Source: an uncultured Bacilli bacterium (GTDB lineage: Bacteria > Bacillota_I > Bacilli_A > RF39 > UBA660). Taken from it: a DNA stretch of 64,000 bases. Both the position numbers and the translations under genes were made by a program. The notes beneath the pieces were generated by a model. It had not been told where the DNA came from, did no database searches, and worked only from the letters and a program-made list of their open reading frames with translations. Within the stretch, counting starts at the first letter, position 1, and every line of letters starts with the position of its first letter. Positions 6,783 through 52,377 of this stretch are shown here, piece by piece. The stretch is from contig CAKOLW010000002.1 in NCBI GenBank assembly GCA_934096405.1, positions 16,754-80,753 of the forward strand, given 5' to 3'.

Positions 6783-8582
6783 TTAGTTATTATTTTCTGT
6801 GTTATTATTTTCGTTGTTTTCTTCTCCAGGTGTTAGTGTTCCTTCTACTACTTCTGGAGTTTTAGCAACCGTAATTGTTAATGTTACTCCTTCAGTTACT
6901 ACACTTTTAGCTGGTCTTGATTGATTAATTATTTTTCCATTAGGTAATAGTGAATTTTCTTCTTCTCTTATTTCTAATGTTAATTTATATTTATTAGCAA
7001 ATTCTTGTACCATTTCTAAAGTATAACTTCCATTTGTAAAATCCGGGTATAAGATTTCTAATTCAGGAACATATAATGTAATGCTTGAACCATATTTTAT
7101 AGTTTCATCAACTCCTGGGCTAGTTCTTAAAACAGTTTCTTCTTTACCTTTATATTTTTCTTCATTTGTTACTTTTTCTTTTTCTATTACAACATTACAA
7201 TTGTATTTAGTTTCAAGAATTGTTTTTACTTCAATATAATTTTTACCACTATAGTCTGGCATTGTAAATGTAGCATCACCACTTGATATGTATATACAAA
7301 CTGTTTTGCCTTCTTTTACAATTGTACCTTTTTCTGGATCAGTTTTGACAACATAACCCTCTTTTATTTCATCATTAGGTATGTATTTATAGTCTCCATC
7401 AGAGCATTTTACATTGAATCCTTTTTTAGTCAATGTGTTACTTGCATCAACTTTGCTTAAGTTAGAAACATCAGGTACTTCTAATGTTTTACCTTTACTT
7501 AATTTAGGAAGTAAGAATATTACAACTGTTATTAGAACAATTAATCCTGCAAATACACACCCTAAGATAAGTAAAATATTTTTTTGTTTTTTTTCTTCAT
7601 TATCTTCTTTTTCAGTAACGATTTCTTTTGGCGTTTCTTTTTTAGTTTCTTGTTTTTTTATTTCTTTAACCACTGTGTCTAATTTTTTAGTATTTTCAAC
7701 ATCATATTCAGGATATGGGTAAACATATTTTTTTTCATTAGCTCTTGTTTCATCTAAGCAAGTTATTATGTCTTGATGCATTTCTCTTGCATCTTTATAC
7801 CTATTAGCTGGATTCTTAGCTGTTGCTTTTATTATTATATTTTCTACACTTTGTGGTAATTCTGGCAATATTTTTCTTATGCTTGGTATTGGTTCTTTTA
7901 ATTGTTTTAAAGCTATTTCTACAGCATTTTCCCCTTTAAAAGGCACACTACCTGTTAATAGTTCATACATTAGTATACCCATAGAATAAATATCACTTTT
8001 TATGGTACAGCCTTTACCTGCTGCTTGTTCTGGAGGTAAATAATGAACACTACCCATTACTGAATTAGTTTGTGTTAATTGAGTACTATTTAGTGCCATT
8101 GCAATACCAAAGTCAGTTATTTTTATTAATCCATTTTCTAGTATCATTATATTTTGAGGTTTTATGTCTCTATGTATAATGTATGAATCATGAGCATGAG
8201 CCATACCATCTGTTATTTGACTCATTATATCTATAACTTCTGTTATCGTTAGACTTCCTCTTTTTTTAAGTAATTGTTTTAACGTTTTTCCTTCTACATA
8301 TTCCATTACTATGTAGTATTCTCCATCATCTTCTCCAACATCATACATTTCGACTATGTTAGGATGATTTAGACTAGAGGCACTTAAAGCTTCTCTTTGG
8401 AATCTTCTTACGAATTTTTCATCATTTCTTAAGTCACCACGAAGTACTTTAACTGCTACATTTCTATCTAATATAGTATCATAAGCTAAATAAACATTAG
8501 CCATACCGCCTTCACCAATAGTTCTAATTATAGAATATCTGTTATTTATCTTTGTTCCTTTATTTATCATACACACCACCAT
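6783..8582 (-). CDS. pknB: PASTA-domain Ser/Thr protein kinase PknB/PrkC
   Basis: Hanks kinase motifs GEGGMANVY, HRDIKPQNIM, DFG and SVHYLPPEQ, followed by a TM segment and three PASTA-like repeats. The real start may be ATG 8570, which overlaps the stp stop. Confidence 0.93.
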   Translation of the reverse strand: MVVCMINKGTKINNRYSIIRTIGEGGMANVYLAYDTILDRNVAVKVLRGDLRNDEKFVRRFQREALSASSLNHPNIVEMYDVGEDDGEYYIVMEYVEGKTLKQLLKKRGSLTITEVIDIMSQITDGMAHAHDSYIIHRDIKPQNIMILENGLIKITDFGIAMALNSTQLTQTNSVMGSVHYLPPEQAAGKGCTIKSDIYSMGILMYELLTGSVPFKGENAVEIALKQLKEPIPSIRKILPELPQSVENIIIKATAKNPANRYKDAREMHQDIITCLDETRANEKKYVYPYPEYDVENTKKLDTVVKEIKKQETKKETPKEIVTEKEDNEEKKQKNILLILGCVFAGLIVLITVVIFLLPKLSKGKTLEVPDVSNLSKVDASNTLTKKGFNVKCSDGDYKYIPNDEIKEGYVVKTDPEKGTIVKEGKTVCIYISSGDATFTMPDYSGKNYIEVKTILETKYNCNVVIEKEKVTNEEKYKGKEETVLRTSPGVDETIKYGSSITLYVPELEILYPDFTNGSYTLEMVQEFANKYKLTLEIREEENSLLPNGKIINQSRPAKSVVTEGVTLTITVAKTPEVVEGTLTPGEENNENNNTENNN

Positions 8583-9309
8583 TTATTAATAAAACTGCTA
8601 TGGAAATATTATCATTTCCACCCCTTAAATTACTCTTTAATATTAGTTTGCCTACTTTTTCTTCTATATCTAAGTCTTCATCATTTAATACTTTTTCTAT
8701 TTGTTCTTTTGTAACCATATTAGTTAACCCATCACTACACAAAAATATTCCGTCAACAGAATTTTCAACATCAAAAATGTCTACTTCTGCTTTTGGACTA
8801 GCACCTAGTGCTCGCATTAATACATTTTTTTGTGGATGATTAGCTGCTTCTTCTGGTCTTATTTCTCCGGTGTCCACCAAAAAGTTAGCATATGTGTGAT
8901 CTTTAGTAACTTTATATAGTTTACCATTTTTAAATACAAACCCACTAGAATCTCCAATGTTAGCAAAAATTAAATATTCCTTAGTTAGTAATGCACATAC
9001 AAGTGTTGTTCCTAATCCTGTAGCATCAACGTGTTCTTCTGCATATTTAATAATATTTGTGTTTACTTCTTCAATAATTTCTTTTAACCAAGTTATTGCA
9101 TCTATTTTAGTTCCTAATGTACTCATGCTTTGGAATCTTGAGCCAATATGTGTCACAGCTAAAGAACTAGCAACTTCTCCAGCACGGTGACCACCCATGC
9201 CATCAGCAACCATTAGCAAATAGTCCCCACTTAAGTTTTTAACTATAGTAACACTATCTTCGTTATGATTTCTAACTTTTCCAGCATCCGTTTGATAATG
9301 TGCTAACAT
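8560..9309 (-). CDS. stp: PP2C-family Ser/Thr phosphatase Stp/PrpC
   Basis: Motifs NEDS, ADGMGGHRAGEVAS, LCSDGL and GGNDNIS. It is translationally coupled to pknB. Confidence 0.92.
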   Translation of the reverse strand: MLAHYQTDAGKVRNHNEDSVTIVKNLSGDYLLMVADGMGGHRAGEVASSLAVTHIGSRFQSMSTLGTKIDAITWLKEIIEEVNTNIIKYAEEHVDATGLGTTLVCALLTKEYLIFANIGDSSGFVFKNGKLYKVTKDHTYANFLVDTGEIRPEEAANHPQKNVLMRALGASPKAEVDIFDVENSVDGIFLCSDGLTNMVTKEQIEKVLNDEDLDIEEKVGKLILKSNLRGGNDNISIAVLLINGGVYDK

Positions 9310-9411: not shown

Positions 9412-9453
9412 ACCAATAGAAAGAGATATATTAGATTTTTTCTAATATATCTC
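9412..9453 (-). terminator. Terminator closing the bacteriocin operon
   Basis: 13-bp perfect stem gagatatattaga/tctaatatatctc with a 5-nt loop, followed on the minus strand by TCTTTCTATT. Confidence 0.7.
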
Positions 9454-9458
9454 AAAGA

Positions 9459-9617
9459 TTAAAATCCACAAGTTTTTCCGTTTCTATATCTGATGATGTA
9501 ACTTCCTACTCTTCTTCCAATATCATAAAGAGATGTTATACCTCTTACTATAGATGATATTAAAGCAGCTGAGAATGAAACTCCACCATATATATTTTTT
9601 AATTCATTTTTATTCAT
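9459..9617 (-). CDS. Double-glycine-leader peptide 1 (class II bacteriocin-like precursor, 52 aa)
   Basis: Not in the ORF track. An RBS gaaaGGAGaatc precedes the ATG. Sequence: MNKNELKNIYGG|VSFSAALISSIVRGITSLYDIGRRVGSYIIRYRNGKTCGF. Confidence 0.8.
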   Translation of the reverse strand: MNKNELKNIYGGVSFSAALISSIVRGITSLYDIGRRVGSYIIRYRNGKTCGF

Positions 9618-9649
9618 GATTCTCCTTTCTGTATATTTTTATTATTTTT

Positions 9650-9781
9650 CTACTTTCCACATTTTATTGGATTTACAAAGCCTTCAAATAAACCCATTGC
9701 GAATGATAAGGCAGCTCCAATAATGGACCATATTCCCCAAGAGGCTCCTCCATAAATTTCTATTAATTCATCTTTTTTCAT
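9650..9781 (-). CDS. Double-glycine-leader peptide 2 (class II bacteriocin-like precursor, 43 aa)
   Basis: Not in the ORF track. An RBS gaaaGGAGaaaaattt precedes the ATG. Sequence: MKKDELIEIYGG|ASWGIWSIIGAALSFAMGLFEGFVNPIKCGK. The start overlaps the exporter stop by 14 nt. Confidence 0.8.
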   Translation of the reverse strand: MKKDELIEIYGGASWGIWSIIGAALSFAMGLFEGFVNPIKCGK

Positions 9782-11819
9782 AAATTTTTCTCCTTTCTAT
9801 ATCATAATAACAATTAAATATATCTTGTATTTCCTTTTTATGTGATACATATATAATTGTTTTTTCTTTAAAATATTCACATAGATTTTTTATAATATCT
9901 TTTTCTATTTCTGTGTCAACCTCACTAAGTGCTTCATCAATAATTATGTAATTACTATTTTTTAGCAAAGCTCTCGCTAGTATAATTCTTTGTTTTTCAC
10001 CACCACTAATATTAAAACCATTTTCTTCAATTAATATATTTTCTTTGTCTTTAAAATGAGATAAATTACAAATATCAATTATTTTATTATATTTACTCTC
10101 ATCAATATTTCTATTTAAAATTATATTATTTTTAAAAGTATCTGAAAATATTTTTTCATTTTGTCCAATATAAGTAAACGAATTATTAATTATATTGTCT
10201 TCAATTTTACTGTAATCAGCGCCATTAATTACAACTTTACCATTATAATCTTTTAAATACTTTAACAAAATTTTTATAAGTGTTGATTTGCCACTTCCAC
10301 TTTTTCCTTTAAGTAAAAATTTGTCTCCACTTTTAATTTTAAAATTTATATTATTTAATATTAATTTATCTGAATAACTATACTGTAATTTTTTTATAAT
10401 AATATCACCACTAATTGTCTCATTAGTTTGTTTTGATTCTTTTGAAGAAAATATTGTATTTATTTTTTCTAGGTTTTTTAAATTATAATTCAATTCAATA
10501 TCTTTATTTAATATGGATTTAACCGTTTCTAGAAAATAACTATTTATCATATATAATAAAATTAAATCACTAATTTTAATTACTTTGTTTGTCACAAATA
10601 TTATTCCTAGAGTCATGAGTAAAAGTAATCCTATATCATTTATAAAGTCTTTAAAAAATTGTTGACTATTAAGACTATAATTCAAACTCCTATTAGAATC
10701 ACAATATGTTTTATGTGTTTTATTTATTTCTAATAATTTAAGACTTTTAATATTAAGATTTTTAATAGTTTCTACTCCTTCGATTATTTCATATAATTTA
10801 TTATTATAAAAACCCTTTTCTTCTTGTATTATTCTAATCTTTCTGTCAAATAAATTTCTATATAACTTGATAAAGAAATAATATAAAAATACTATTATCA
10901 GGGTGATTAAAGCTAATTTTAAATTAATAGTTATCATTATTATAAATGATATTATAATTATTAATATATTTATAGACATATTTAATATTATATCTGACAA
11001 AATATCTCTTAAATTATCTAAATCATTTAATCTACTTATAATTTCTCCAGAGGTTTTATTTTTGTAGTAAGCATAAGGAAGGTTAAATAGTTTACTTAGT
11101 ACTTCATTATTTATAAATAATTCAATATTATAATTTGTATTAATAATTAATTTATTTCTAAAATAATTAAATATATTTTTAATAATTATAAATAGACTAA
11201 ATAAGATAAGCAAACTTATAATATACTTTCTATTTACATTAGGTTTCTCTAAAATTATTTTATAATAATATGTACTAATTATACTGAATAAAAAAGTTAT
11301 TAAAGAGGTAATAAAAAGTAATAATAGATTCTTTTTATCTTTTAAAATTTTAACTAGTATTTCTTTAAAGATTTTGTTACTATTAGATTCTTTAGGTAAC
11401 TCTTTTATTTTTTCGAAGAATAAAAGTGTTCCTAAGTACTTTTTTTGAAAATCACTTATTTTAGTTTTTATAAAACCAATACATGGATCCATATATAGAA
11501 TTGTATTTCTATTTGTATCTATTTTATATATAACTACAAAGTGATATGCATTACCATTTTTTACATGTGCGATTAAAGGAAACTTATTTTTATATTTATG
11601 TATATTTTCGAGAGCAACTTTTTGTCCATAAGCATTAAATCCTATTTCTTTAGCACCTTTAATTATGTCATATGCATTCGTGCCATGTTTAGTGGTATTA
11701 ATTATTTCTTTAATATTTTCCATACTTATATTACCACCATAATATTTAATTATTGAAGATAAACTAGCTGCAGCGCAATCATTTTTATCTTCATTAAGCA
11801 CCATTAATTTTTTATTCAT
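9768..11819 (-). CDS. Bacteriocin/peptide ABC exporter with an N-terminal C39 peptidase domain (LagD/ComA/SunT family)
   Basis: C39 Cys in KNDCAAASLSSII and His in AYHFVVIYK. Six TM segments follow, then Walker A GKSGSGKST, the signature ISGGEKQR and Walker B IIIDEA. Confidence 0.9.
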   Translation of the reverse strand: MNKKLMVLNEDKNDCAAASLSSIIKYYGGNISMENIKEIINTTKHGTNAYDIIKGAKEIGFNAYGQKVALENIHKYKNKFPLIAHVKNGNAYHFVVIYKIDTNRNTILYMDPCIGFIKTKISDFQKKYLGTLLFFEKIKELPKESNSNKIFKEILVKILKDKKNLLLLFITSLITFLFSIISTYYYKIILEKPNVNRKYIISLLILFSLFIIIKNIFNYFRNKLIINTNYNIELFINNEVLSKLFNLPYAYYKNKTSGEIISRLNDLDNLRDILSDIILNMSINILIIIISFIIMITINLKLALITLIIVFLYYFFIKLYRNLFDRKIRIIQEEKGFYNNKLYEIIEGVETIKNLNIKSLKLLEINKTHKTYCDSNRSLNYSLNSQQFFKDFINDIGLLLLMTLGIIFVTNKVIKISDLILLYMINSYFLETVKSILNKDIELNYNLKNLEKINTIFSSKESKQTNETISGDIIIKKLQYSYSDKLILNNINFKIKSGDKFLLKGKSGSGKSTLIKILLKYLKDYNGKVVINGADYSKIEDNIINNSFTYIGQNEKIFSDTFKNNIILNRNIDESKYNKIIDICNLSHFKDKENILIEENGFNISGGEKQRIILARALLKNSNYIIIDEALSEVDTEIEKDIIKNLCEYFKEKTIIYVSHKKEIQDIFNCYYDIERRKIYEKR

Positions 11820-12052
11820 TATTTTTCCCTCCTATATACTTTATTAGACAAAAAATGGTCAATCGCTTTTATTTTCTTTTAATACATAAGATTTTACGTA
11901 CAAACAGTGTTAAAATTTAAACAATTTTAAATTTTGATATGTAAAGTTAGTGTTTTTGTATAAAAAATTATAAAATTAGAATAATAATATTTAGAAAATT
12001 TAAATAAAATAAGTAAAAATAAGAGAAAATATAACTTTTGTCTCATAAACAC

Positions 12053-12100: not shown

Positions 12101-12177
<77 letters not shown>

Positions 12178-16017: not shown

Positions 16018-16103
16018 TTGATTTTAAGAAAATTTTATGGTATAAGTATAGATACAAGAGATGTAGTCCTGCTGACGTGACAGCGGGGGTGCATCTCTTT
16101 TTT
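16018..16103 (+). ncRNA. Candidate small RNA module, copy 1 (promoter plus a roughly 50-nt hairpin/terminator RNA)
   Basis: TTGATT-N17-TATAAG with an extended -10 TG. The RNA is then AGAGATGTA-GT-CCTGCTG-ACGTGA-CAGCGGG-GG-TGCATCTCT-T6. Its T-run overlaps the stop codon of the convergent 16102-16623 gene. Confidence 0.55.
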
Positions 16104-16623
16104 ATTTTCTTTTAAATACTTTATACATTTTATTTTTCTTTATTATTATTTTATTTACAAATAAAACATCAGGTCTTTTATATAATCTATTTAATTGATT
16201 AATTATTTCATTAAAATCAAGTTTAGACTTTGATAAATCTAATATAAAATTATTACTTTGTTTATTTTTTCCATACACTGCATGATATAACGCTTGATTA
16301 CTACTACTGGTTATTGTTTTTAAATCCCATTTTTCTTTATTCATCATATAATCTGGTGTTTTGATTTTTTTTGGATAATTTACTTTTGGCACTAATCTTA
16401 CTTCATAGCCAAATGTTTGACTTAACCAAAAAGCAATATTTAATTCGTCCCTACTATGGTCAATCTGTACATTTTTTCCATCTACAATATATATACTTTT
16501 ATCATGAACATAAAAATATTGTAACCTTACATTGAATATAATTTCATTATTTTTAAAATTAGCAGTAATATCAATATAATTTACAGTGTCTTGTAACACT
16601 TTATTCACAAATGTATTCTTCAC
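16102..16623 (-). CDS. Hypothetical protein with a PD-(D/E)xK-like motif. It resembles standalone nuclease/tRNase toxin domains of polymorphic-toxin or phage head-protein C-termini.
   Basis: 173 aa. The pattern ..GYEVRLVPKVNYPKKIKTPDYMMNKEKWDLKTITSSSNQALYHAVYGKNKQSNNFILDL fits hydrophobic strand - PD - x10 - D/E-L-K - conserved Q. The family assignment is from memory only. Confidence 0.6.
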   Translation of the reverse strand: MKNTFVNKVLQDTVNYIDITANFKNNEIIFNVRLQYFYVHDKSIYIVDGKNVQIDHSRDELNIAFWLSQTFGYEVRLVPKVNYPKKIKTPDYMMNKEKWDLKTITSSSNQALYHAVYGKNKQSNNFILDLSKSKLDFNEIINQLNRLYKRPDVLFVNKIIIKKNKMYKVFKRK

Positions 16624-16747: not shown

Positions 16748-17257
16748 AAATACTTTATACATTTTATTTTTATTTATTATTATTTTATTTATGAATAAAA
16801 CATCGGGGCTTTTATATAATCTATTTAATTGATTAATTATTTCATTAAAATCAAGTTTAGACTTTGATAAATCCAATATAAAATTATTGCTTTGTTTATT
16901 TTTTCAATACACTGCATGATATAACGCTTGATTACTACTACTTGTTATTGTTTTTAAATCCCATTTTTCTCTATTAATGATGAAGTCAGGTGTATTAACA
17001 CCATAAGGAAAATTAACTTTAGGTACTAATATTACCTCATAACCAAATACCTGATTAATCCAATAAGCAATATTTAATTCTTCTCTAGAATAATCAAATT
17101 TGACATGCCTACCATCTACAATATATACACTTTTATCATGAACATAAAAATGTTGTAACCTTACATTGAATATAATTTCATTATTTTTAAAATTAGCGGT
17201 AATATCTATATAGTTGGCAGTGTCTTGTAACACTTTATTCACAAATGCATTCTTCAC
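16736..17257 (-). pseudogene. Tandem paralogue of the 16102-16623 gene, interrupted by a nonsense codon
   Basis: Collinear with the upstream copy. At 16904-16906 GGA (Gly) has become TGA (..ALYHAVY*KNKQSNNFILDL..). The remaining 3' part is nearly identical in DNA to copy 1. The ORF track shows only 16904..17311. Confidence 0.7.
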
Positions 17258-17342
17258 CTCCAGTCTGTTAAAAGATAAGCTTATATTAACATAATTAAGA
17301 AAGTATAACAAGCAAAATATTGAAAAAATACGAAAAAAACTA

Positions 17343-20313: not shown

Positions 20314-22998
20314 CTATGCAGATAGAAGACTTTTTAATTCGACAACATTAGAAAACTCACTATAATACGTTGTTCCATCACTAATAGCGTATTTTCTTAC
20401 TTTAAAATATAAATGTCCACCACGTTTTACACTTACATAATTTTGGTTGTTTTCCCACTCTTCTTTTGTTATTGTTTTATTTAAAGTATATTTTCCATCT
20501 TCTGATGTTGAGCTATATACTTCTATACCTGTAGTATAATCTAAATTATCTATCAAAATTTGCATTCTTTGTTCATTTTCATCACCATTCTGACCAGATT
20601 CTGTTATAACTGGTGTTGAAAGGGAACTATCTACATCTAATACGTTTGAAAATTCACTCATATAATATGTATTTTCATCTATGGCAATATATTTTCTTAC
20701 TTTAAAATATAAGTGTTGGCCACTTGGTGCAGAGACTTCAAATGTATTGTTTTCATCTATGTCTTCTTTTTTTATTGTTTTATATAAAGTATATTCTCCG
20801 TCTTCAGATGTTGAACTATATACTTCAATACCTGTTGCTTCAGTTAATAAATTAACACATATTCTTAAAGCATTTCCTGCGTCAGAGCCTTCCCAACCTG
20901 CTTCAGTAATTGTTGGATGACCCATTTCTGCTTTCACTTCTGAATATTCACTATACACTTTATTTCCTTCGGTATTTATTATATATGCTCTTGCTGCATA
21001 TGTCTTTCCATAATTATCTTTTACATCAACTATAGTTTTGAATTCTTGAGAACCTTCAGAAGTTTTTATTAATGCATATGTTTCTCCTGTTTTTTCATAT
21101 ATTTCATAACCGTGTACTTCATTACCTGATTCACCATATATTTGACCATATAAAGTAATTTTATTGTCTTTTATATCAGAATTTATAAATGGTTGTGGTA
21201 CAGGATTTGTTAAAGTTAAGTAATTAGAATAATCACTATATACTTTTTCTCCTCTAGAATTTAATGCATAAACCCTTAATGTATATATTTCAGTTACACC
21301 TTTTTCAATAGTAACTTCTTTATTTAAAATTCCTTCATTTGTTTCAACTAAATTAGGTGCGTTATCAATTACTTTGTATAATTCATAACCGTCTATTAAA
21401 TCAGTTGCTCCTTCTTCTGAATAAGCTCCTTCATAATCAAATCTTAATATTGGTTTATCTATAGTACCTAAAGGATTTGATAATGTTGGTGTTGAAACTT
21501 TATTAACAAGTTCAACAAAATTTGAAAATTCACTATAATATGTTGTTCCATCACTAATAGCATATTTTCTTACCTTAAAATAAAGGTGTTCTCCTTTTTG
21601 TGCACTTACAGTATATGGATGACTTTCCCATTCTTCTTTAGTTATTGTATTTAATAAAGTATATTCTGCGTTTGCTGATGTTGAACTATATACTTCTATA
21701 CCACTGGTGTAATCTAAATTGTCTATTGTTAATATTATTGATTTTACGCCTTCACTTTCACCTTCACCTGTTACATTTAAAACTGGTGTTGAAAGAGAAT
21801 TATTTACATTTAATACATTTGAAAATTCACTAACATAATATGTATTTTCATCTATAGCAATATATTTTCTTACTTTATAATATAAGTGTTGGCCACTTGA
21901 TGCAGAAACTTCAAAAGTATTATTACTACTAATATCTTCTTTTTTTATTGTTTTATATAAAGTATATTCTCCATCTTCTGATGTTGAACTATATACTTCT
22001 ATACCTGTTGCTTCTGTTATTGAATTAATGCATAATAGAATTCCTTGAGGTTCATCGCTTCCACTGGCACCTGCTGTTGTAATTGTTGGATAACTCATTT
22101 CTGCTTTTACTTCTGAATAATCACTATATACTTTGTTTCCATCTGAATCTAATATGTAAGTTCTTGCTGCATATGTCTTTCCATAATTACCTACTAAGTC
22201 CACACTTGTTTGAAAGTTTTGATGAATATTATCTGTATGTATCACATTATAAGTATTACCAACTTTTTCATATACTTCATTTCCAGACATAGTACCGATT
22301 GCTTCTCCACCTATATTTATTTTATTGTTTTCAATATAAACAAACATATTTGGTGCGGCTATAGAATTTGTTAAAGTTAAGTAATCAGAATAATCACTAT
22401 ATACTTTTTCACCTTTTGCATTTATTGCATATACCCTTACTTTGTAAGATTTAGTAGTTCCAATACTAAGTGAAATTTCTTTGTTTAAAATACCTTCTTT
22501 TGTTTCAATTAATTGTAATTTATTAGCAATTAATTCATATAATTCGTAACCATTGATTAAATCAGTTGCTCCTTCTTTTGAATAAGCTTCTTCATAATCA
22601 AATCTTAATATAGGTTTATCTATAGTACCCAATGGATTAGATAATGTTGGTGTATCTAGATAAACATCATTATTTTTATAATTAATCTCAAAAGTTGTTG
22701 GTACATCTACTAATTCATTTGTTAATGCATTGAACCAAAGTCCTCTTGCATTTTTATAGTAAATAATCATATCTTCAAGATTATTACTATCTATTGTTTT
22801 AGCAGCTAACATAATAACATCAGTTGTTAAATAACCTTTATAGTTATTTGTTGTTTCTCTTGTAAACATACTTTTACCAATTATGTATGTTGAATTAGAA
22901 ATATCATTTGTATCTATTTCTCCAGCATTTAGATTATTAATATTTGCAAATGTAAATATTCCAATTAAGAGAACAATGCTACTTAATATTTTCTTCAT
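20314..22998 (-). CDS. Secreted repeat-rich surface protein (894 aa) made of FN3/Ig-like modules
   Basis: Signal peptide MKKILSSIVLLIGIFTFANINNLNA. The modules repeat motifs of the type GIEVYSSTSEDGEYTLYKTI..HLYFKVRKY..YYSEFSN. Confidence 0.85.
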   Translation of the reverse strand: MKKILSSIVLLIGIFTFANINNLNAGEIDTNDISNSTYIIGKSMFTRETTNNYKGYLTTDVIMLAAKTIDSNNLEDMIIYYKNARGLWFNALTNELVDVPTTFEINYKNNDVYLDTPTLSNPLGTIDKPILRFDYEEAYSKEGATDLINGYELYELIANKLQLIETKEGILNKEISLSIGTTKSYKVRVYAINAKGEKVYSDYSDYLTLTNSIAAPNMFVYIENNKINIGGEAIGTMSGNEVYEKVGNTYNVIHTDNIHQNFQTSVDLVGNYGKTYAARTYILDSDGNKVYSDYSEVKAEMSYPTITTAGASGSDEPQGILLCINSITEATGIEVYSSTSEDGEYTLYKTIKKEDISSNNTFEVSASSGQHLYYKVRKYIAIDENTYYVSEFSNVLNVNNSLSTPVLNVTGEGESEGVKSIILTIDNLDYTSGIEVYSSTSANAEYTLLNTITKEEWESHPYTVSAQKGEHLYFKVRKYAISDGTTYYSEFSNFVELVNKVSTPTLSNPLGTIDKPILRFDYEGAYSEEGATDLIDGYELYKVIDNAPNLVETNEGILNKEVTIEKGVTEIYTLRVYALNSRGEKVYSDYSNYLTLTNPVPQPFINSDIKDNKITLYGQIYGESGNEVHGYEIYEKTGETYALIKTSEGSQEFKTIVDVKDNYGKTYAARAYIINTEGNKVYSEYSEVKAEMGHPTITEAGWEGSDAGNALRICVNLLTEATGIEVYSSTSEDGEYTLYKTIKKEDIDENNTFEVSAPSGQHLYFKVRKYIAIDENTYYMSEFSNVLDVDSSLSTPVITESGQNGDENEQRMQILIDNLDYTTGIEVYSSTSEDGKYTLNKTITKEEWENNQNYVSVKRGGHLYFKVRKYAISDGTTYYSEFSNVVELKSLLSA
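20320..22662 (-). repeat. Internal tandem duplication of about 1.17 kb (about 390 aa) inside the surface-protein gene
   Basis: PTLSNPLGTIDKPILRFDYE(E/G)AYS(K/E)EGATDLI(N/D)GYELY.. starts at about aa 113 and again at about aa 503. The DNA segments at 22611-22660 and 21441-21490 are nearly identical. Confidence 0.85.
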
Positions 22999-23008
22999 AT
23001 TTTTCCTC

Positions 23009-23320
23009 CTATTTTATTATAACTTGTGCTTCTACTTTTTTATCATTATTTAGTTTAACTATTAATGTTTTAATATCTTTTATATCAGTATATGAAGCAA
23101 TTGGATTAGTACCATAACATAATATTGTTCCGTCTTCATATCTGATTTCTTTAAATTCTATTTCTTTATCATTTTCATATACAATTAATTTTCTTTCTGG
23201 TGAGTATGCATCTACTGTTTCAAAATTAATTTTATAAGTTTTTTTGTTATAAAATAATAGTACTAACACTATAGCTATTATTAAAACTATAGGTATTATA
23301 ATTATTAATCTCTTTTTCAT
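23009..23320 (-). CDS. Small membrane-anchored protein sharing the C-terminal domain of the upstream 489-aa protein
   Basis: TM anchor followed by YKINFETVDAYSPERKLIVYENDKEIEFKEIRYEDGTILCYGTN... This aligns with YTISRRKTDSYSPDNLLTVYEEGSVISVQRIEYIDGGIICFGNN.. at the end of 23322-24791. Confidence 0.75.
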   Translation of the reverse strand: MKKRLIIIIPIVLIIAIVLVLLFYNKKTYKINFETVDAYSPERKLIVYENDKEIEFKEIRYEDGTILCYGTNPIASYTDIKDIKTLIVKLNNDKKVEAQVIIK

Positions 23321-23321
23321 A

Positions 23322-24791
23322 TTAATTAATTGTAGCAGTTACTTTTATACCACTATTTAGTACTACTACTACTCTTGTCACTCCTAATAAATCAGTATCA
23401 GATGCAGATAAGTTATTTCCAAAACATATTATACCACCATCTATGTATTCTATTCTTTGAACAGATATTACACTTCCTTCTTCATAAACTGTTAATAAGT
23501 TATCTGGTGAATATGAATCAGTTTTTCTTCTAGAAATTGTATATGATTTTTGTACCCAACTTGCTGTTAAAGTAATATTGCTTGTTACAGGATTGTTAAA
23601 ATTGTAAGCACTTCCATTTAATAACCATCCATTAAATTTGTACCCTTCTTTTGTTGGTGATGCTGGTTGAGTAACTTTATTTCCTTCAGTAATAGTTTGT
23701 GAACCGACACTAGTTCCACCATCTGAATTAAATGTAACTGTATATTTTGATAAAGGTTGCCATTTAGCAGTTAGTGTTATATTTTTTGTTATTCCAATAT
23801 TAAAGTCGTATGTTTTTCCATCTAATTGCCATTCTACAAACTTATATCCTTCTTTTGCAGGATTACTTGGTTTTGTTGCTTTATTTCCTTCTGTAATTGT
23901 TTGTGAGTTTACACTACTTCCACCATCTGAATTGAATGTAACTGTGTATTTATTTGCTATTTTGCTCCAACTTGCTACTAGAGTAATGTTTTTAGTTACT
24001 ATAGTATTAAAGTCATATGATTTTCCGTCTAATGTCCATCCTTCAAATGTGTATCCGCTTCTGGTAGGATCTTTAGGCTTACTAGCTTTGTTTCCTTCAA
24101 TAACACTTTGTGAACTAATTAAAGACCCTCCGTTACTATTAAATGATACTGAGTATTTTTTCTTAGTTGGTGTTGTTGGATTATTTGGTTTTGTTGTATT
24201 ACCATTATTTCCATTGTTTCCACTATTGCCATTATTATTTGTGTTATTTCCATTTGTTTGTTTTACTTCTTCCCATTTAGCTTTTAATTTTAGGTTAGTA
24301 GTAACTTCAGTATCAAAGTTGTAAGTTTTTCCATCCAATTGCCATTCTTTGAACACATAATTTGCTTTAACTGGATCTACTGGCTTTACTATTTTTTGAC
24401 CTTTTTCTATTACTTGGTTTGCTATAGTTGTTCCACCATCAGTGTCAAATTCAACTACATAAGTTTTAACGTCTTCTCTTACTTTTTCCCACTTAGCAAT
24501 TAATGTTAAATTTGATGTAACAGCTGAATTAAAGTCATATGTATTACCATTATTAGTCCATTCAACAAATATATAACCTTCTTTTGTAGGATTAGTTGGC
24601 TTTGTAACTTTTTCTCCTTCTTTTATTTTTTGATCACTTATTGTACTTCCACCACCAGTATTGAAAGTGACATTATAAGTTACAGGTACTTCTTCTTTAT
24701 TCATTGTTTTTACAATGACTCCTATAATACCGGCTATAACAACAACTACTATAGCACCGAGTATATAATATAGGCTTTTTTTGTTTTCCAT
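23322..24791 (-). CDS. Membrane-anchored surface protein with six Listeria-Bacteroides (Flg_new/InlB B-type) repeats
   Basis: A repeat of about 70 aa recurs, of the form YTVTFNSDGGSSV.SQTITEGNKATKP..P.KEGYKFVEWQLDGKTYDF....TKNITLTAKW. The linker is Asn/Gly-rich. Confidence 0.8.
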   Translation of the reverse strand: MENKKSLYYILGAIVVVVIAGIIGVIVKTMNKEEVPVTYNVTFNTGGGSTISDQKIKEGEKVTKPTNPTKEGYIFVEWTNNGNTYDFNSAVTSNLTLIAKWEKVREDVKTYVVEFDTDGGTTIANQVIEKGQKIVKPVDPVKANYVFKEWQLDGKTYNFDTEVTTNLKLKAKWEEVKQTNGNNTNNNGNSGNNGNNGNTTKPNNPTTPTKKKYSVSFNSNGGSLISSQSVIEGNKASKPKDPTRSGYTFEGWTLDGKSYDFNTIVTKNITLVASWSKIANKYTVTFNSDGGSSVNSQTITEGNKATKPSNPAKEGYKFVEWQLDGKTYDFNIGITKNITLTAKWQPLSKYTVTFNSDGGTSVGSQTITEGNKVTQPASPTKEGYKFNGWLLNGSAYNFNNPVTSNITLTASWVQKSYTISRRKTDSYSPDNLLTVYEEGSVISVQRIEYIDGGIICFGNNLSASDTDLLGVTRVVVVLNSGIKVTATIN

Positions 24792-25030: not shown

Positions 25031-25055
25031 GAAAAAAAGAAGTTTAAACTTCTTC
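25031..25055 (-). terminator. Terminator of the ABC exporter operon
   Basis: The minus strand reads AGAAGTttaaACTTCT followed by T7, overlapping the stop codon. Confidence 0.6.
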
Positions 25056-26828
25056 AAATTGACTATTATAAAGCGTACTATAGAATCCATTCTTTTTAAG
25101 TAATTCATCATGAGTACCTTGTTCTACTATATTTCCGTCTTTTAATACTAGTATTAAATCGGCATTTTTAATTGTAGATAATCTATGTGCAATGATGAAT
25201 GATGTTTTATTTTTCATTAGTTCATCCATTGCTTTTTGTATTAATATTTCTGTTCTTGTATCTACACTACTAGTTGCTTCATCAAGTATTAGTATTTTAG
25301 GATTAGCAAGTATTGCTCTTGCAATAGTAAGTAATTGTTTTTGACCACCACTTATGTTGTCTGTATCTTCATTTAAAATCATGTTGTATCCATCAGGTAA
25401 AGTTTGAATAAAGTGATGTACATGTGCCATTTTCGCTGCATCTATTACTTCCCTATCTGTAGCGTCTAATCTTCCATATCTTAAGTTCTCCATTATTGTA
25501 CCACTAAATAACCATGTATCTTGAAGTACCATACCAAATTGTTTTCTTAATTCTCCTCTGTCAACATTTTTTATGTTAACACCATCAACTAGTATTTCCC
25601 CACTATTGGTGTCATAGAATCTCATAAGTAATTTTACTAAAGTTGTTTTACCTGCTCCAGTAGGTCCCACTATTGCTATCTTTTTACCACTTGTAACATG
25701 AGTACTAAAATTATTTATAATTATTTTATCATCATATCCAAAAGTAACATTTTTAAATACTACATTTCCTCTTACATTTTTAAGTTCTACTTTATTTTTA
25801 ATAGGTTCTTCTTTTTCATTTAAAAATTCAAATACTCTTTCACAAGCTGCGACCATACCTTGTAATTCAGTCATTATACTTGCTAGATTTGCAATTGGAT
25901 TAGTAAAATTCTTAGTATATGTTATGAATGATTGAATATTACCAACTGTTATTTTTCCTTCAATAACATATATTCCACCCATTATAGCAACAACTACATA
26001 ACCTAAATTACCAACTAATTTCATAATTGGATGCATAAGTCCACCTAAGAAATTACTTTTCCAAGCTGATTCACATAACTCATTGGTACTTTCTTCAAAA
26101 TCTTTCATCATTTTATTTTCTGCATTAAATGATTTTATTATGTTTTGTCCACTCAACATTTCTTCTACTTTACCATTAACAATTGCTAGTCTATCTTGTT
26201 GATTAACAAAGTGATGTTGACTCTTCTTCATTATGGTACTAGTTATTATTAAAGATATTGGTAGTATTACCAAAGTAACAATTGTCATAGTAAAGTTAAT
26301 AGAAAACATCATTATAAGTATTCCTATTACCATAACTATACATGTTATTAATTCAGTAGCACTTCTATTTAAATTCATACTTATTGTATCTATATCATTA
26401 GTTACTAAAGATAATACTTCACCATGAGTCTTTTTATCAAAGTATTTAAGTGGTAATTTATTTACTTTTTTATCTACTTTACTTCTTAAATCTTTGGCAT
26501 ATTTTTGACTTATTTTTGCCATTATAATACCTTGTAAATAATTGAATAATGCACTTATAATATATAAGATCAATATTGTTAAAAGTATTTTATGTAATTT
26601 AGTGAAATTTATTCCACCTATTCCTTGTATTTTTTTTATTATTCCACTATATAATTCAGTAGTGGCATTACCTAATATTTTAGGTCCAACTATAGTGAAT
26701 AAAGTACCTAATATTGATAATATTGTTATAACTATTATATGTACATAGTAAGGCTTTAAACTTTTTATTAATGTTTTCATTGTACCTTTAAAGTCTTTTG
26801 CTTTATCTGTATTTTGTGGTCTTGGCAT
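25044..26828 (-). CDS. ABC multidrug/lipid-type exporter, fused permease-ATPase (heterodimer partner B)
   Basis: Six TM segments, then GPTGAGKTT, ISGGQKQL and LILDEATSSVD. The start is ATG 26828, 6 nt after AGGAGGTG. Confidence 0.9.
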   Translation of the reverse strand: MPRPQNTDKAKDFKGTMKTLIKSLKPYYVHIIVITILSILGTLFTIVGPKILGNATTELYSGIIKKIQGIGGINFTKLHKILLTILILYIISALFNYLQGIIMAKISQKYAKDLRSKVDKKVNKLPLKYFDKKTHGEVLSLVTNDIDTISMNLNRSATELITCIVMVIGILIMMFSINFTMTIVTLVILPISLIITSTIMKKSQHHFVNQQDRLAIVNGKVEEMLSGQNIIKSFNAENKMMKDFEESTNELCESAWKSNFLGGLMHPIMKLVGNLGYVVVAIMGGIYVIEGKITVGNIQSFITYTKNFTNPIANLASIMTELQGMVAACERVFEFLNEKEEPIKNKVELKNVRGNVVFKNVTFGYDDKIIINNFSTHVTSGKKIAIVGPTGAGKTTLVKLLMRFYDTNSGEILVDGVNIKNVDRGELRKQFGMVLQDTWLFSGTIMENLRYGRLDATDREVIDAAKMAHVHHFIQTLPDGYNMILNEDTDNISGGQKQLLTIARAILANPKILILDEATSSVDTRTEILIQKAMDELMKNKTSFIIAHRLSTIKNADLILVLKDGNIVEQGTHDELLKKNGFYSTLYNSQFEEV

Positions 26829-26829
26829 T

Positions 26830-28875
26830 TTATTCACCTCCTAATTGACTTATTTTTATTTCTTTATATATAGGACAAGATTTAAGTAACTCTTCATGAG
26901 TACCCATTCCTACTATTTCACCATTATCTAAAACTATTATATTATCAGCATGCATTACAGAACTAATTCTTTGCGCTACTACAAATACTATTTTATCTTT
27001 AGTTATTTTATTTAGTTCTTTTCTAAGTTCTGCATCAGTTTTATAGTCTAGTGCTGAAAATGAATCATCAAATACATATATTTTAGGATCTTTACAAATT
27101 GCTCTTGCAATAGATAGTCTTTGTTTTTGACCACCACTTACATTAGTACCACCTTGGCTTATTTCTCTATCAAGTCCATCTTTATCTTCATTAATAAATT
27201 CTAATGCTTGGCTTATTTTAGCTGAAGCAAGTGCTTTTTCTCTATCAGGTTTATTAAGTCCAAATGTTATATTAGATAATATAGTACCACTAAATAAATT
27301 ACCTTTTTGTGGAACGTATCCAATTAACTCTCTTAAATCTTTTAATTTTACATCTTTTATATTTCTACCATTTACTAGAATTTCCCCACTAGTAACATCA
27401 TAGAATCTAGGTATTAAATTGATTAATGTAGATTTGCCACTACCAGTACTACCTATAAATGCTGTAGTTGTTCCTTCAGTCGCCTTAAAGTTAATATTTC
27501 TTAGTACATCTTCTGTAGCATCAGGATATCTAAAGTATACATCTCTAAATTCTACTTCATTCTTTTCTCCAAGTTTTAAAGTTTTTTCTTTATCTTTTAT
27601 TTTAGATTCAGTATTTAATACTTCACTAACTCTTTTAAGAGAAATAGTTGCTCTTGGAAGCATTATAAGTACCATAGATACCATTAAAAATGACATAATA
27701 ATTTGCATAGTATATGTTATAAACGCTATCATAGAACCAACTTGCATAGTACCCATATCTATTTTATTAGCACTTACCCATACAATTAATATACTTACAC
27801 TATTCATCATAAGTGTTAAAGTAGGTTCCATTATAGCCATAGCTTTATGTATAAATAAACCATTTTTAGTTATATCATCATTAGCTTTTTCAAATCTTTT
27901 TTCTTCATATTTTTCATTAGCAAATGCTCTTATTACTGGTATACCTTCTAATATTTCTTTAAATACTAAGTTCATTCTATCTAATAAATCTTGCATTTTT
28001 TTAAATTTAGGTACAACTACAAGGAACAATACTAACATAAGAAGTAATACTGCGCATACGGACACTATTACAACCCAAGATATAGGACTACCACTTACTT
28101 TAGTAATCGCACCTATTCCCATTATTGGAGCAAAGATTATTATTCTAAATAACATCATTATTAAAGTTTGTATTTGTACTATATCATTAGTACATCTTGT
28201 TATCAAACTACTAGTACTAAATTTATTTAATTCTTCAGTTTCAAATGTCATTATCTTCTTCATAACTTTATTTCTTAAATCTTTACCAATGAATGCAGAT
28301 AATTTACTAGATAAATAAACACTAAGTATTGTTGCTCCCATAGATATTAATGCTACAATTAGCATTTTTCCACCTGTAGAATATATATAATTCATTTGTT
28401 TTTCTTCTACATCTATACCTAATTCTTTATAAGTATTTTTTATATAGTTAATATCACTTTGTTCAATGAAACTCTCATTGCCTTCATATTGGTCTTTTAA
28501 TGAATTTACCACTTCTTTTGTTGGTACACCATTAAATTTATCTATGTTAACCACTATAGATATAGGATACAATAAAATACTCTCTAAATCTTTATTTTCT
28601 TTTATTAATTTATATTTTCCATCTATTAAATCATAACTAACTTCTAAAATATCTTTTTCTTTATTATCAAGCATATTAGTTATTAAATTATAATCTTTTT
28701 TACTTAATACTTCAGGTACAATACTTTCTATACCTCCACTTTGTATACCAGTATCAACTATTTTACTAGTATAACTAGGTAATTCTAATTCTGTATATGC
28801 CTGCGCAAATAAAAGAATTAATATAAATAATATTTGTAATTTATATTTAACTATTGTTTTTAATATTTCTTTCAT
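26830..28875 (-). CDS. ABC exporter, fused permease-ATPase (heterodimer partner A) with a long extracellular insert after TM1
   Basis: Motifs GSTGSGKST, VSGGQKQR and YVFDDSFSALD. The likely start is ATG 28875 after GGGAGG. Confidence 0.9.
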   Translation of the reverse strand: MKEILKTIVKYKLQILFILILLFAQAYTELELPSYTSKIVDTGIQSGGIESIVPEVLSKKDYNLITNMLDNKEKDILEVSYDLIDGKYKLIKENKDLESILLYPISIVVNIDKFNGVPTKEVVNSLKDQYEGNESFIEQSDINYIKNTYKELGIDVEEKQMNYIYSTGGKMLIVALISMGATILSVYLSSKLSAFIGKDLRNKVMKKIMTFETEELNKFSTSSLITRCTNDIVQIQTLIMMLFRIIIFAPIMGIGAITKVSGSPISWVVIVSVCAVLLLMLVLFLVVVPKFKKMQDLLDRMNLVFKEILEGIPVIRAFANEKYEEKRFEKANDDITKNGLFIHKAMAIMEPTLTLMMNSVSILIVWVSANKIDMGTMQVGSMIAFITYTMQIIMSFLMVSMVLIMLPRATISLKRVSEVLNTESKIKDKEKTLKLGEKNEVEFRDVYFRYPDATEDVLRNINFKATEGTTTAFIGSTGSGKSTLINLIPRFYDVTSGEILVNGRNIKDVKLKDLRELIGYVPQKGNLFSGTILSNITFGLNKPDREKALASAKISQALEFINEDKDGLDREISQGGTNVSGGQKQRLSIARAICKDPKIYVFDDSFSALDYKTDAELRKELNKITKDKIVFVVAQRISSVMHADNIIVLDNGEIVGMGTHEELLKSCPIYKEIKISQLGGE

Positions 28876-28967
28876 GTTACTTTTTCCTCCCAATTAATAC
28901 TACTTTCATAAATTTAAAAAGTCAACTTATTACATACTTTTTCACATAAGTTTCATAAATAAATTGA

Positions 28968-30412: not shown

Positions 30413-31075
30413 TTATGCATTTGTATCATTTTCTGTATCCCAAGTTACTGTGTCATCTGTAACCATTTTTGCTACTTCTTTACCATCTATTTTGTAAACA
30501 CCTATTACTCTCCACATTATACCACTATAGTAAAGATAGTTATCTGGATTGTTACAATTTGTATCATTAGCGCAGTAAACGCATTCCATCTTTTCTACTT
30601 TTTGATTTTCATCAGTACACTTTAAATCAGTCTTAACTTTTCCTACTAAATCAGTATCAGTAGTTGAAGCTTGTTCACTACCCCATATTGCTATGTATGC
30701 ATCATTTGAATACTTTATTAATATTTCTTGATTATTTAAACTTTGATTATTCGTAGGATCAATAACACATCCTTTGTTAGTTTTTTCTGTTTCAGCATCT
30801 CCACACTTTCCTGAACCATTAGCAATTTCAGAATTAACATACCCATTTTCTACTAAATTATATACAAATATTTTTTCTCCACTAGGTATATTTTTATCTT
30901 TAGCATATAACTCAGCTGCAACTAATATTATGTCTTTTTTACTTTCTAATAATCTTTCATTGGATCTTTTTCTTATATTTATTATACTAGGTATAGATAT
31001 AGCTAGTATTATTCCTATTATTGCAATTACTACTAATATTTCAGTAATAGTAAAACCTTTCTTATTATTAATCAT
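30413..31075 (-). CDS. Type IV pilin/pseudopilin-like protein (prepilin N-terminal methylation motif), orphan
   Basis: MINNKKGFTITEILVVIAIIGIILAISIPS has the G|FTxxE motif. The C-terminal segment NPDNYLYYSGIMWRVIGVYKIDGKEV resembles the YYYSG..W..WRIIR..DG motif of the secreted family. Confidence 0.8.
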   Translation of the reverse strand: MINNKKGFTITEILVVIAIIGIILAISIPSIINIRKRSNERLLESKKDIILVAAELYAKDKNIPSGEKIFVYNLVENGYVNSEIANGSGKCGDAETEKTNKGCVIDPTNNQSLNNQEILIKYSNDAYIAIWGSEQASTTDTDLVGKVKTDLKCTDENQKVEKMECVYCANDTNCNNPDNYLYYSGIMWRVIGVYKIDGKEVAKMVTDDTVTWDTENDTNA

Positions 31076-52022: not shown

Positions 52023-52377
52023 TGGTGGAGCTGACGAGTATCGAGCTCGTGTCCAAAATATCTACTATACAAGCGTGTACAAGTTTAGTTGGTTTATTAT
52101 TTCAAAAAGTATAATGGATTGCCAACGTTCCTATACTTTTCTAAGTTTAGTAATAATTCTTTATTTAACCTAAACAATTAAATAATATAGTCTACTTTTA
52201 TGAGTCCTAGATCTTTTCTCGTAGACAAAGAAAAGTTAGAACCACCATACATCCTAATAACTAGGCAAAAGCAGGTGCAAAATTATAATCTTTTCCGATT
52301 ATTTTATTTTTGGATTTATAGTATCCCTACTACTTGCGCTCATACGTACAACTATCTTGTCGAAACATAACAGCCCC
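52023..52377 (-). ncRNA. ssrA: tmRNA (ssrA)
   Basis: The 5' end GGGGCTGTTATGTTTCGACAAGATAG parallels the B. subtilis tmRNA 5' end. The 3' end is GGACACGAGCTCGATACTCGTCAGCTCCACCA. The acceptor has the G3:U pair. The tag ORF at 52296-52261 reads GGA AAA GAT TAT AAT TTT GCA CCT GCT TTT GCC TAG, giving (A)GKDYNFAPAFA. Confidence 0.85.

Follow-up and report, generated by a model that had tools for sequence, protein, structure and literature searches.

The exporter and two peptide genes form a compact operon

We analyzed a 64,000-nucleotide stretch of contig CAKOLW010000002.1 (assembly GCA_934096405.1) from an uncultured Bacilli bacterium, here referred to as the window, and in particular an operon on its minus strand that encodes a C39-type ABC exporter and two small peptides with double-glycine leaders. 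An earlier reading made from the letters of this DNA (the sequence-only reading) had placed the two peptide genes, here called pepA and pepB, behind the exporter and proposed a minimal class IIb-like bacteriocin locus. The genes lie at the coordinates, and have the sequences, that this reading gave, and no other small open reading frame (ORF) fits: among the 272 Met-initiated small ORFs of the window (25–110 amino acids), a loose double-glycine-leader pattern was matched only by pepA and pepB. The peptide genes had been described as unannotated, and they do lack names, but both are already predicted in public gene calls. Coordinates are collected in Table 1.

The genes are ordered exporter, pepA, pepB in the direction of transcription. 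The start of pepA precedes the exporter stop codon, giving an overlap of 14 nucleotides (nt) that suggests translational coupling, and pepB follows on the same strand after a gap of 32 nt. Each peptide gene has its own Shine-Dalgarno sequence, as had been claimed; it reads AAAGGAG and is located 7–10 nt ahead of the ATG. A single intrinsic-terminator-like hairpin begins 6 nt past the pepB stop codon. Three such sites were seen in the scanned region against 0.3 expected, and a hairpin can also be read from the sequence 3' of pepB in other loci. The position of the hairpin after pepB indicates that exporter, pepA and pepB make up a closed transcription unit, separate from the neighboring stp gene. 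We also considered an internal promoter (TTGACA-16-TATTAT, matching at 11 of 12 positions) that would lie within the 3' coding end of the exporter gene, about 110 nt ahead of pepA, and could lift expression of the peptides over that of the exporter. This match is not conserved in other loci, and we treat it as unproven.

The exporter

The exporter contains an N-terminal C39 protease domain, a six-helix transmembrane region and a nucleotide-binding domain, all of which score above their Pfam gathering cut-offs (C39, 101.6 bits; ABC_membrane, 108.6 bits; ABC_tran, 93.1 bits). This combination, with a Cys/His/Asp protease, is the hallmark of exporters of the PCAT/AMS type. The closest solved relatives are PCAT1 (4RY2; E 1.6e-73 over residues 5–670) and ComA, the chains of which each score about 250 bits over the full length. 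Cys15, His93 and Asp111 of the exporter align with the catalytic residues of PCAT1, bearing out the claim that the Cys and His needed for cleavage after Gly-Gly are present, and these residues are kept in 118–119 of 119 family exporters. The Walker A, signature and Walker B motifs, read from the PCAT1 alignment, are intact. At the oxyanion-hole position, six residues before the catalytic Cys, Asn9 is aligned to the Gln of PCAT1; Gln occupies this position in 104 of the 119 family exporters and Asn in 13 (the window and 12 others). Scores fall under the curated cut-offs for TIGR01193 (326.2 against 523.85) and for the mycoplasma model NF045998 (299 against 500). By these sequence comparisons the exporter is a divergent member of the peptidase-containing ABC exporters (PCAT/AMS type), and it very probably exports peptides and cleaves them after Gly-Gly.

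The peptides belong to two large conserved families

The pepA precursor consists of the 12-residue leader MKKDELIEIYGG and the 31-residue mature peptide ASWGIWSIIGAALSFAMGLFEGFVNPIKCGK, and the pepB precursor of the 12-residue leader MNKNELKNIYGG and the 40-residue mature peptide VSFSAALISSIVRGITSLYDIGRRVGSYIIRYRNGKTCGF. Both leaders end in IYGG, as had been noted. Mature A is hydrophobic (grand average of hydropathy 0.88), with a Trp-rich SWGIW N-terminus, a GLFEG motif of the GxxxG type and an NPIKCGK tail. Mature B has a net charge of +5 and is strongly amphipathic; its N-terminus is not distinctive, and Cys50 lies near its C-terminus. The sequence-only reading had assigned a GxxxG motif to the hydrophobic peptide and described the other as cationic. 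Both statements hold, but the motif is not confined to A, as mature B also carries one (GRRVG, within YDIGRRVGS). Calculated masses are 3269.68 Da for mature A, 4395.36 Da for mature B and 7663.03 Da for the oxidised heterodimer.

AlphaFold2 predicts a single helix for each precursor, with a mean pLDDT (predicted local distance difference test) of 77–78. The predicted helix of pepA covers 22 residues (15–36) and that of pepB 33 residues (13–45); an unstructured, low-confidence tail with Cys41 follows in pepA, and a low-confidence tail with Cys50 in pepB. The cysteine is in each case five residues beyond the predicted helix end.

Profile searches yielded at least 86 clusters of pepA homologues and at least 156 clusters of pepB homologues at 90% identity. 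An exhaustive search extended the pepB family to 457 representatives at 50% identity (E<=1e-3), 179 of them at E<=1e-10. Within the pepA family, G30 and G34 of the GxxxG motif are invariant, P38 and C41 are at least 90% conserved, and the tail follows the motif NPxxC. Within the pepB family, R43 and C50 are invariant, and G34, R35 and G38 are at least 90% conserved. We considered salt-bridge covariation between acidic residues in the GxxxG of A and basic residues in that of B, and dropped it because the pattern is broken in loci L081 and L065.

The relatives of the peptides carry almost no names, and a search of a literature library for the family motifs found no paper. The name 'lactobin A/cerein 7B family class IIb bacteriocin' is attached by JGI to two pepA relatives. 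Among 57 diverse pepA relatives, 50 give weak matches to both TIGR03949 and NF038034 at E<0.1 (best TIGR03949 match, 8.8e-8). The relatives of pepB match known models through the leader only.

The C-terminal cysteines are kept or lost together

A Cys is found within seven residues of the C-terminus in 146 of 148 pepB representatives, and the two exceptions have aberrant extended tails that look frameshifted. The Cys of pepA is present in all intact sequences except one (P0215). We traced this sequence to locus L081, where the pepB partner also lacks its Cys and where the exporter and both peptides are otherwise intact. When 14 A/B pairs were read, 13 had both cysteines, one had neither, and none had a single Cys. 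Since genuine loss of the pepB Cys is rare (0 of 148 representatives), the joint loss in L081 is unlikely to be due to chance. The earlier hint that the shared Cys points to a disulfide or a common modification is thereby strengthened. The sequence pattern makes it quite possible, if short of probable, that the cysteines of A and B function jointly, an interchain disulfide being the simplest form. Alternatively, the pair could form a shared metal site or a common redox switch.

The module is inherited with the chromosome

At 38–74% identity in the exporter, the exporter-A-B module was found at 14 distinct metagenome or metagenome-assembled genome loci (designated by L numbers). Loci were fetched around exporter relatives at 65, 52, 49, 47, 42, 40 and 38% identity, as well as around peptide relatives, and every one of them has a pepA homologue of about 41–48 residues and then a pepB homologue of about 48–54 residues behind the exporter. 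With the exporter as query, a protein search gave 381 relatives at E<=1e-30. The best 120 share 36–74% identity with it, and nearly all of these have the three-domain layout. A scan of metagenomes with a narrowed pepB alignment gave only two loci, and a scan of a genome collection with the exporter gave only distant ABC proteins, at no more than 29% identity over long matches. The identical exporter protein occurs on several independent human-gut metagenome contigs, with the same neighbors as in the window.

The module is flanked in all 14 loci by chromosomal housekeeping or sporulation genes. In the window a divergently transcribed tRNA-Arg(TCT) gene lies upstream of the operon, and stp, pknB, rsgA, divIB, ftsA and ftsZ lie downstream. 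All or part of an upstream block, ackA-DHH-rpmG-efp-spoIIIAH-gerE-gerM, is seen in the window, L061, L063, L067 and L081. On the downstream side, stp-pknB-rsgA is found in the window, L061 and L071, rpsO-pnp in L063, L065 and L067, and rpsU-yqeY in L073; rlmN-stp-pknB-rsgA-rpe lies nearby in L068, L069 and L075. These blocks are shuffled pieces of one ancestral region, which points to vertical descent and not to horizontal transfer. The sequence-only reading had found it unusual that the operon is wedged before a division gene cluster; the cluster is there, but its position is no oddity for a module that descends vertically in a deep low-GC clade. A tblastn search with both peptides against 72,556 plasmids gave no match. 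The sole match on a viral contig was a false positive, a chance YDIGRRIG within a 1393-residue phage structural protein.

The G+C content is 22–27% in all loci (26.2% in the window), and several loci carry SpoIVA or CotE. Low G+C together with sporulation genes indicates that the hosts are low-GC spore-forming Firmicutes, represented in human gut samples; going by the study codes in the record names, we take some of the samples to be from ruminant gut. The hosts look like anaerobic gut spore-formers.

The module changes faster than its neighbors. Between the window and L061, amino-acid identity is 92% for Stp, 82% for PknB and 83% for RsgA, and is 64% for the exporter, 65% for pepA and 52% for pepB. 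Ratios of nonsynonymous to synonymous substitution (dN/dS) against relatives, which are approximate as dS is near saturation, are 0.10–0.41 for pepA, 0.21–0.51 for pepB and 0.27–0.35 for the exporter, compared with 0.04 for Stp and 0.14 for PknB. The peptides evolve 2–8 times faster than neighboring stp and pknB. Purifying selection combined with rapid change fits a system of antagonism or recognition and rules out a relic.

Some lineages have additional genes at the module. In three subclades (L070, L073 and L078-80) a single-pass membrane protein of 139–146 residues, with one N-terminal membrane helix and no Pfam match, is encoded between exporter and pepA. Two versions that we compared have like architecture and no clear sequence similarity (BLASTP E 0.55). 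The window's subclade has no such protein; it could assist export or confer immunity, and the window's lineage has perhaps lost it. In one lineage only (L063 and L064), a gene for a 410-residue ATP-grasp protein (RimK-like, weak Pfam match) is inserted between gerM and the exporter gene, and its product may modify the peptides in that lineage. In the window, two neighboring genes for ABC exporters of the half-transporter type are located about 13 kb from the module, and a similar pair, accompanied by a MarR regulator gene, directly adjoins the module in L068, L069 and L075. This arrangement may be leftover synteny or may reflect a functional link such as self-protection.

The region upstream of the exporter gene

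Ahead of the exporter gene, seven loci from the subclade of the window share a series of elements: a TTTACA-like hexamer, direct repeats, a AAAATAAAAG block, a -10-like hexamer and the Shine-Dalgarno sequence, in this order. The tandem direct repeat, ACGTAAAAT-CTT-ATGTATTAA, has a 12-nt register and lies 61–80 nt upstream of the exporter ATG. Its consensus is A[CT]GTAAAAT, occurring twice, and it is kept in the window, L061, L071, L072, L063, L065 and L067 despite diverged surrounding intergenic DNA. The pattern matches once in the window against 0.09 expected, and nearly all its matches in the fetched loci lie ahead of module exporters; this test of specificity is partly circular because the pattern was built from the same sequences. 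By its sequence the repeat is a candidate regulatory site (activator or operator), and looks like one that would bind an activator protein whose gene lies elsewhere. The TAATAA hexamer is a putative -10 element; no canonical -35 element was found at the right spacing for it. Readings of the region as sigma-H-like, Spo0A-box-like, WalR-like or LytTR-like were also considered. The spacings are poor and AT-rich DNA gives many near-matches, so we name no sigma factor or regulator.

A 10-bp perfect inverted repeat upstream of the promoter, AAAATTTAAA-ATTG-TTTAAATTTT, had been singled out by the sequence-only reading. It is present, but the conserved upstream element, a candidate regulatory site, is the tandem direct repeat and not the inverted repeat. 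Counterparts of the inverted repeat are weak only, centered on ATTG, and occur in the two closest relatives (L071 and L072). The window contains about 12 distinct perfect inverted repeats of this kind against 3.5 expected from Markov shuffles, most of them terminators. The TTAACA hexamer of the window, which is TTTACA in relatives, shares 2 nt with the inverted repeat and reaches 4 nt beyond it on the downstream side.

Table 1. Positions of the features discussed, in window coordinates unless a locus is named.
Feature	Position	Strand	Description
Exporter gene	9768-11819	minus	683-residue ORF
pepA	9650-9781	minus	43-residue precursor; ORF and Shine-Dalgarno sequence read directly
pepB	9459-9617	minus	52-residue precursor; ORF and Shine-Dalgarno sequence read directly
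Intrinsic-terminator-like hairpin	9423-9453	minus	13-pair stem then T-rich run; operon end
Internal promoter match	9919-9892	minus	unproven; not conserved in other loci
Exporter Shine-Dalgarno sequence	11827-11833	minus	AGGAGGG
Promoter-proximal block	11827-11850	minus	aligned columns kept across seven loci
-10-like hexamer	11841-11846	minus	TAATAA; putative promoter element
Tandem direct repeat	11880-11899	minus	candidate regulatory site
TTAACA hexamer	11908-11913		TTTACA in relatives
Inverted repeat	11912-11935		10 bp, perfect; 4-nt spacer
tRNA-Arg(TCT)	12101-12177	plus	upstream of operon
stp	8560-9309		downstream of operon
CdiA_C-like protein	16102-16623	minus	173 residues
Small unannotated ORF	16904-17311		beside CdiA_C-like protein
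Large protein genes	20314-24791	minus	894, 103 and 489 residues
ABC exporter pair	25044-28893	minus	half-transporter type
Type IV pilin-like protein	30413-31075	minus	N-terminal methylation motif
MurT/GatD-like pair	33064-35125	plus	peptidoglycan amidation
tmRNA	52023-52377	minus	full length
Inserted membrane protein	L070 8072-8491; L073 7561-8001; L078 7569-7988		between exporter and pepA
ATP-grasp gene	L063 4631-5863; L064 139-1371		between gerM and exporter
ABC pair and MarR regulator gene	L068 8479-12827; L069 862-5132; L075 644-4944		directly beside module

Proposed function and alternatives

The locus belongs to a large family, so far without a name, of modules that join an exporter to two peptides and are inherited with the chromosome. 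This family is set apart by its paired C-terminal cysteines, the lack of a linked immunity gene and its deep synteny. As to function, the best single explanation, to which we give an even chance, is that the operon stands on its own, descends with the chromosome and makes a class IIb-type heterodimeric pair of membrane-active peptides, possibly Cys-bridged. Several hallmarks of class IIb systems are found: an adjacent pair of peptide genes, double-glycine leaders with a C39 exporter, and predicted helices with GxxxG motifs. In class IIb systems, killing calls for the two peptides together in about equal amounts. By analogy with known two-peptide bacteriocins, we infer heterodimer formation, membrane activity and killing.

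The mechanism that we propose would begin at a regulated promoter upstream of the exporter gene, from which one exporter-pepA-pepB transcript would be made, ending at the hairpin. The C39 domain would bind the 12-residue leaders, cut after Gly-Gly and export the two products, the 31-residue hydrophobic A with its Trp-rich N-terminus and the 40-residue cationic, amphipathic B. Outside the cell, A and B would pair in parallel, helix to helix, through the conserved GxxxG motifs. Parallel packing would bring the two C-terminal tails, and hence the two cysteines, together, so that the cysteines could act as a pair, most simply by forming an interchain disulfide. Like lactococcin G and the plantaricins, the heterodimer would then insert into the membrane of sensitive bacteria, which would probably be related Firmicutes. 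Protection of the producer would have to come from outside the operon, with an unlinked gene, a receptor allele that gives resistance and the exporter itself as candidates.

A number of observations weigh against a class IIb bacteriocin of this kind. The first concerns immunity, as an operon-linked immunity gene is a hallmark of class IIb systems that is absent here. None was found in or adjoining the operon in any of the 14 loci, and the genes flanking the module differ from locus to locus, with none shared across all 14; Pfam identified no informative domain in these variable neighbors. In the window, no ORF beyond the three operon genes lies between the tRNA-Arg gene and the end of stp. A Pfam scan covered 40 of the 62 window ORFs of at least 90 residues (nearly all of the others overlap longer opposite-strand ORFs), and none of the scanned ORFs contains an immunity-type, Abi/CAAX, histidine-kinase or response-regulator domain. 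Secondly, neither window peptide reaches the cut-off of a curated bacteriocin family. Window pepA scores 22.2 bits against NF038034 (E 1.2e-4; cut-off 37), the match covering the leader and the N-terminal part of the mature peptide; it has no match at E<=1 to TIGR03949 (cut-off 21.5 bits) and none to the Pfam family Bacteriocin_IIc (PF10439). Window pepB scores 15.6 bits against PF10439, under the gathering cut-off of 27.1, and 13.5 bits against TIGR03949, under its cut-off and through the leader only. Such weak matches come largely from the leader, and profile searches of all PDB chains with pepA and pepB, solved two-peptide bacteriocins included, gave no meaningful match. Thirdly, the module sits in a core-like position and has been conserved vertically to a great depth, which is unusual among bacteriocins, as these are normally patchy and mobile. 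The Asn in place of the oxyanion Gln in the protease domain also counts against the proposal, as do two points about the cysteines: their correlated loss is known from a single lineage, and a stable disulfide is doubtful in the reducing surroundings that the hosts probably inhabit. The class IIb-like label given by the sequence-only reading stands for the gene architecture, the GxxxG motifs and the hydrophobic/cationic pair, but not for the immunity gene or the curated family cut-offs; its statement that there is no immunity, accessory or quorum-sensing gene was correct for the window.

A bolder reading, which we consider possible but rather doubtful, is that the products represent a new class of two-chain secreted peptide, a Cys-bridged A/B heterodimer that is a core trait of a deep low-GC gut clade and needs no immunity gene. 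The target of such a heterodimer might be absent from the producers, or the heterodimer might serve in kin recognition or signaling, or it might be a redox-gated factor that acts where the gut is oxidising.

Signaling can also be proposed for the peptides without the two-chain structure. One or both would then be exported signals sensed by a kinase or regulator encoded elsewhere, serving cell-density or kin recognition and perhaps self-induction. Core-like conservation across the clade without an immunity gene fits this proposal, and so does the conserved tandem direct repeat upstream of the exporter, which belongs to a type that response regulators bind. Like pherotype systems, the module evolves faster than the genes around it, and a few family members weakly match the models for the BlpC, EntF-inducer and VP1 pheromones, through the leader. 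A linked kinase or regulator is the hallmark of pheromone systems, however, and neither a histidine kinase nor a response regulator is present in the neighbor tables of the 14 loci. Known double-glycine pheromones are single peptides of about 17–27 residues, encoded beside their kinase, whereas here two peptides of 31 and 40 residues are always kept together, both with GxxxG and one with a 22-residue helix of the membrane-spanning type. We consider signaling unlikely on balance.

The missing immunity gene would be easier to explain if the target of the peptides were the producer itself, conditionally, or its kin. The peptides might thus serve the physiology of the producer, through sporulation-linked cannibalism or sibling killing, or as an envelope factor tied to stp-pknB or to sporulation genes. 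Through several rearrangements the module has repeatedly remained beside spoIIIAH-gerE-gerM or stp-pknB-rsgA-rpe, and sporulation genes, SpoIVA and CotE for example, are present in the host genomes. These neighbors are more simply regarded as leftover ancestral order, though, and others adjoin the module in L065, L070, L073 and L078. Moreover, its own terminator and upstream control region indicate that the operon is not co-transcribed with stp, and no sporulation-type promoter could be assigned upstream with confidence. A role in the producer's own physiology accordingly receives a small share of the probability.

The near-invariant single Cys of each peptide raises the question of modification. 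If the peptides were precursors of ribosomally synthesized and post-translationally modified peptides (RiPPs), an enzyme encoded elsewhere would act on their cysteines, for instance by thioether formation, S-glycosylation or acylation, and the ATP-grasp gene directly upstream of the exporter in the L063/L064 lineage would agree with this. RiPP clusters characteristically co-encode the modification enzyme, but neither the window nor 12 of the 14 loci has one within the module or next to it, nor is there a Pfam domain in the variable neighbors. The joint Cys loss in L081, where the module is otherwise intact, fits a mutual pair better than separate targets of an enzyme, and we consider modification quite improbable. 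Finally, that the locus is a decaying relic, or that its small ORFs arose by chance, is barely credible: the Gln-to-Asn change in the protease domain and the lack of accessory and immunity genes speak for decay, but there are hundreds of homologues with conserved motifs, dN/dS is <1, the catalytic triad, Walker motifs, Shine-Dalgarno sequences and terminator are in place, and the identical exporter is found on several independent metagenome contigs.

If the proposal of a class IIb-type pair is correct, the locus represents a very large uncharacterised peptide family in human and ruminant gut metagenomes, with at least 457 clusters (50% identity) for pepB alone, and the two-peptide model would be extended to include a possible covalent Cys pair, stable chromosomal inheritance and the lack of a linked immunity gene. 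With its three genes, the module would be a compact system in which to study how cells that make membrane-active peptides escape their own products, and could be used to test whether the redox state of the gut gates peptide activity. Both peptides are short enough for synthesis, making the central claims directly testable.

Other features of the window

A 173-residue protein matches the CdiA_C toxin domain (PF18451, E 1.2e-14) with its C-terminal half. Its gene stands alone beside small unannotated ORFs, one of which is listed in Table 1, and may represent an orphan toxin/immunity pair. Elsewhere, genes for proteins of 894 and 103 residues without a Pfam match are followed by one for a 489-residue Listeria-Bacteroides repeat protein (PF09479, E 3.7e-83); these are probably surface proteins. 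The window also contains ordinary genes for a MurT/GatD-like pair and a type IV pilin-like protein, and encodes a full-length tmRNA. The tmRNA was identified by Rfam (121.9 bits); ARAGORN reported four tRNAs and no tmRNA in the window.

Comparison with known systems

The exporter shares its three-domain architecture and aligned Cys/His/Asp residues with PCAT1 of Clostridium thermocellum and with ComA. It differs from them in the Asn at the oxyanion position and in the very short (12-residue) leaders of its peptides, and the window's subclade has no accessory protein of the ComB/LcnD type. Like members of the lactobin A/cerein 7B family (TIGR03949), pepA has a double-glycine leader and then a Gly-rich hydrophobic helix. 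Unlike them, the pepA family has a conserved tail of its own, G[YF]xNPxxC or DGYLRPLKC, and pepA is always accompanied by pepB, which resembles that family in its leader only.

Plantaricins EF and JK likewise consist of paired helical peptides with GxxxG motifs, and the direct repeats upstream of the operon recall the regulator-driven promoters of these systems. A motif of the pepB family, G-S-A-I-R-R, may also resemble the C-terminus of PlnJ. The plantaricin systems are under three-component quorum-sensing control, whereas the module has no linked inducer, kinase, regulator or Abi-type immunity gene. Sites of the LytTR type have a register of about 21 nt, compared with about 12 nt for the repeat of the module.

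Lactococcin B is a class II peptide with a single Cys that must be in the right redox state. The module resembles it in having a single conserved Cys per peptide that possibly controls activity. Lactococcin B is, however, a one-peptide system with an immunity gene, and here there is one Cys in each of two partners, lost jointly. A need for reduced cysteines is mentioned in an atlas of gut class II bacteriocins (PMC12648112).

The lactococcin G and enterocin 1071 systems (exporter LagD) resemble the module in having two adjacent genes for peptides with double-glycine leaders and a dedicated C39 ABC exporter. The product of pepA resembles the beta peptide of lactococcin G (Trp-rich N-terminus, GxxxG and the weak match to NF038034), that of pepB resembles the alpha peptide (GxxxG and a cationic C-terminal region), and both are predicted to form single helices. 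In the model for lactococcin G, alpha and beta pair in parallel, helix to helix, through GxxxG motifs. The module differs in its reversed order (exporter, beta-like, alpha-like), in lacking both a LagC-type immunity gene and an accessory gene, and in scores that fall under the family cut-offs with no match to a solved structure. Lactococcin G has no conserved C-terminal Cys, whereas A and B each have one, and lactococcin G is plasmid-borne, whereas the module is chromosomal and vertically inherited.

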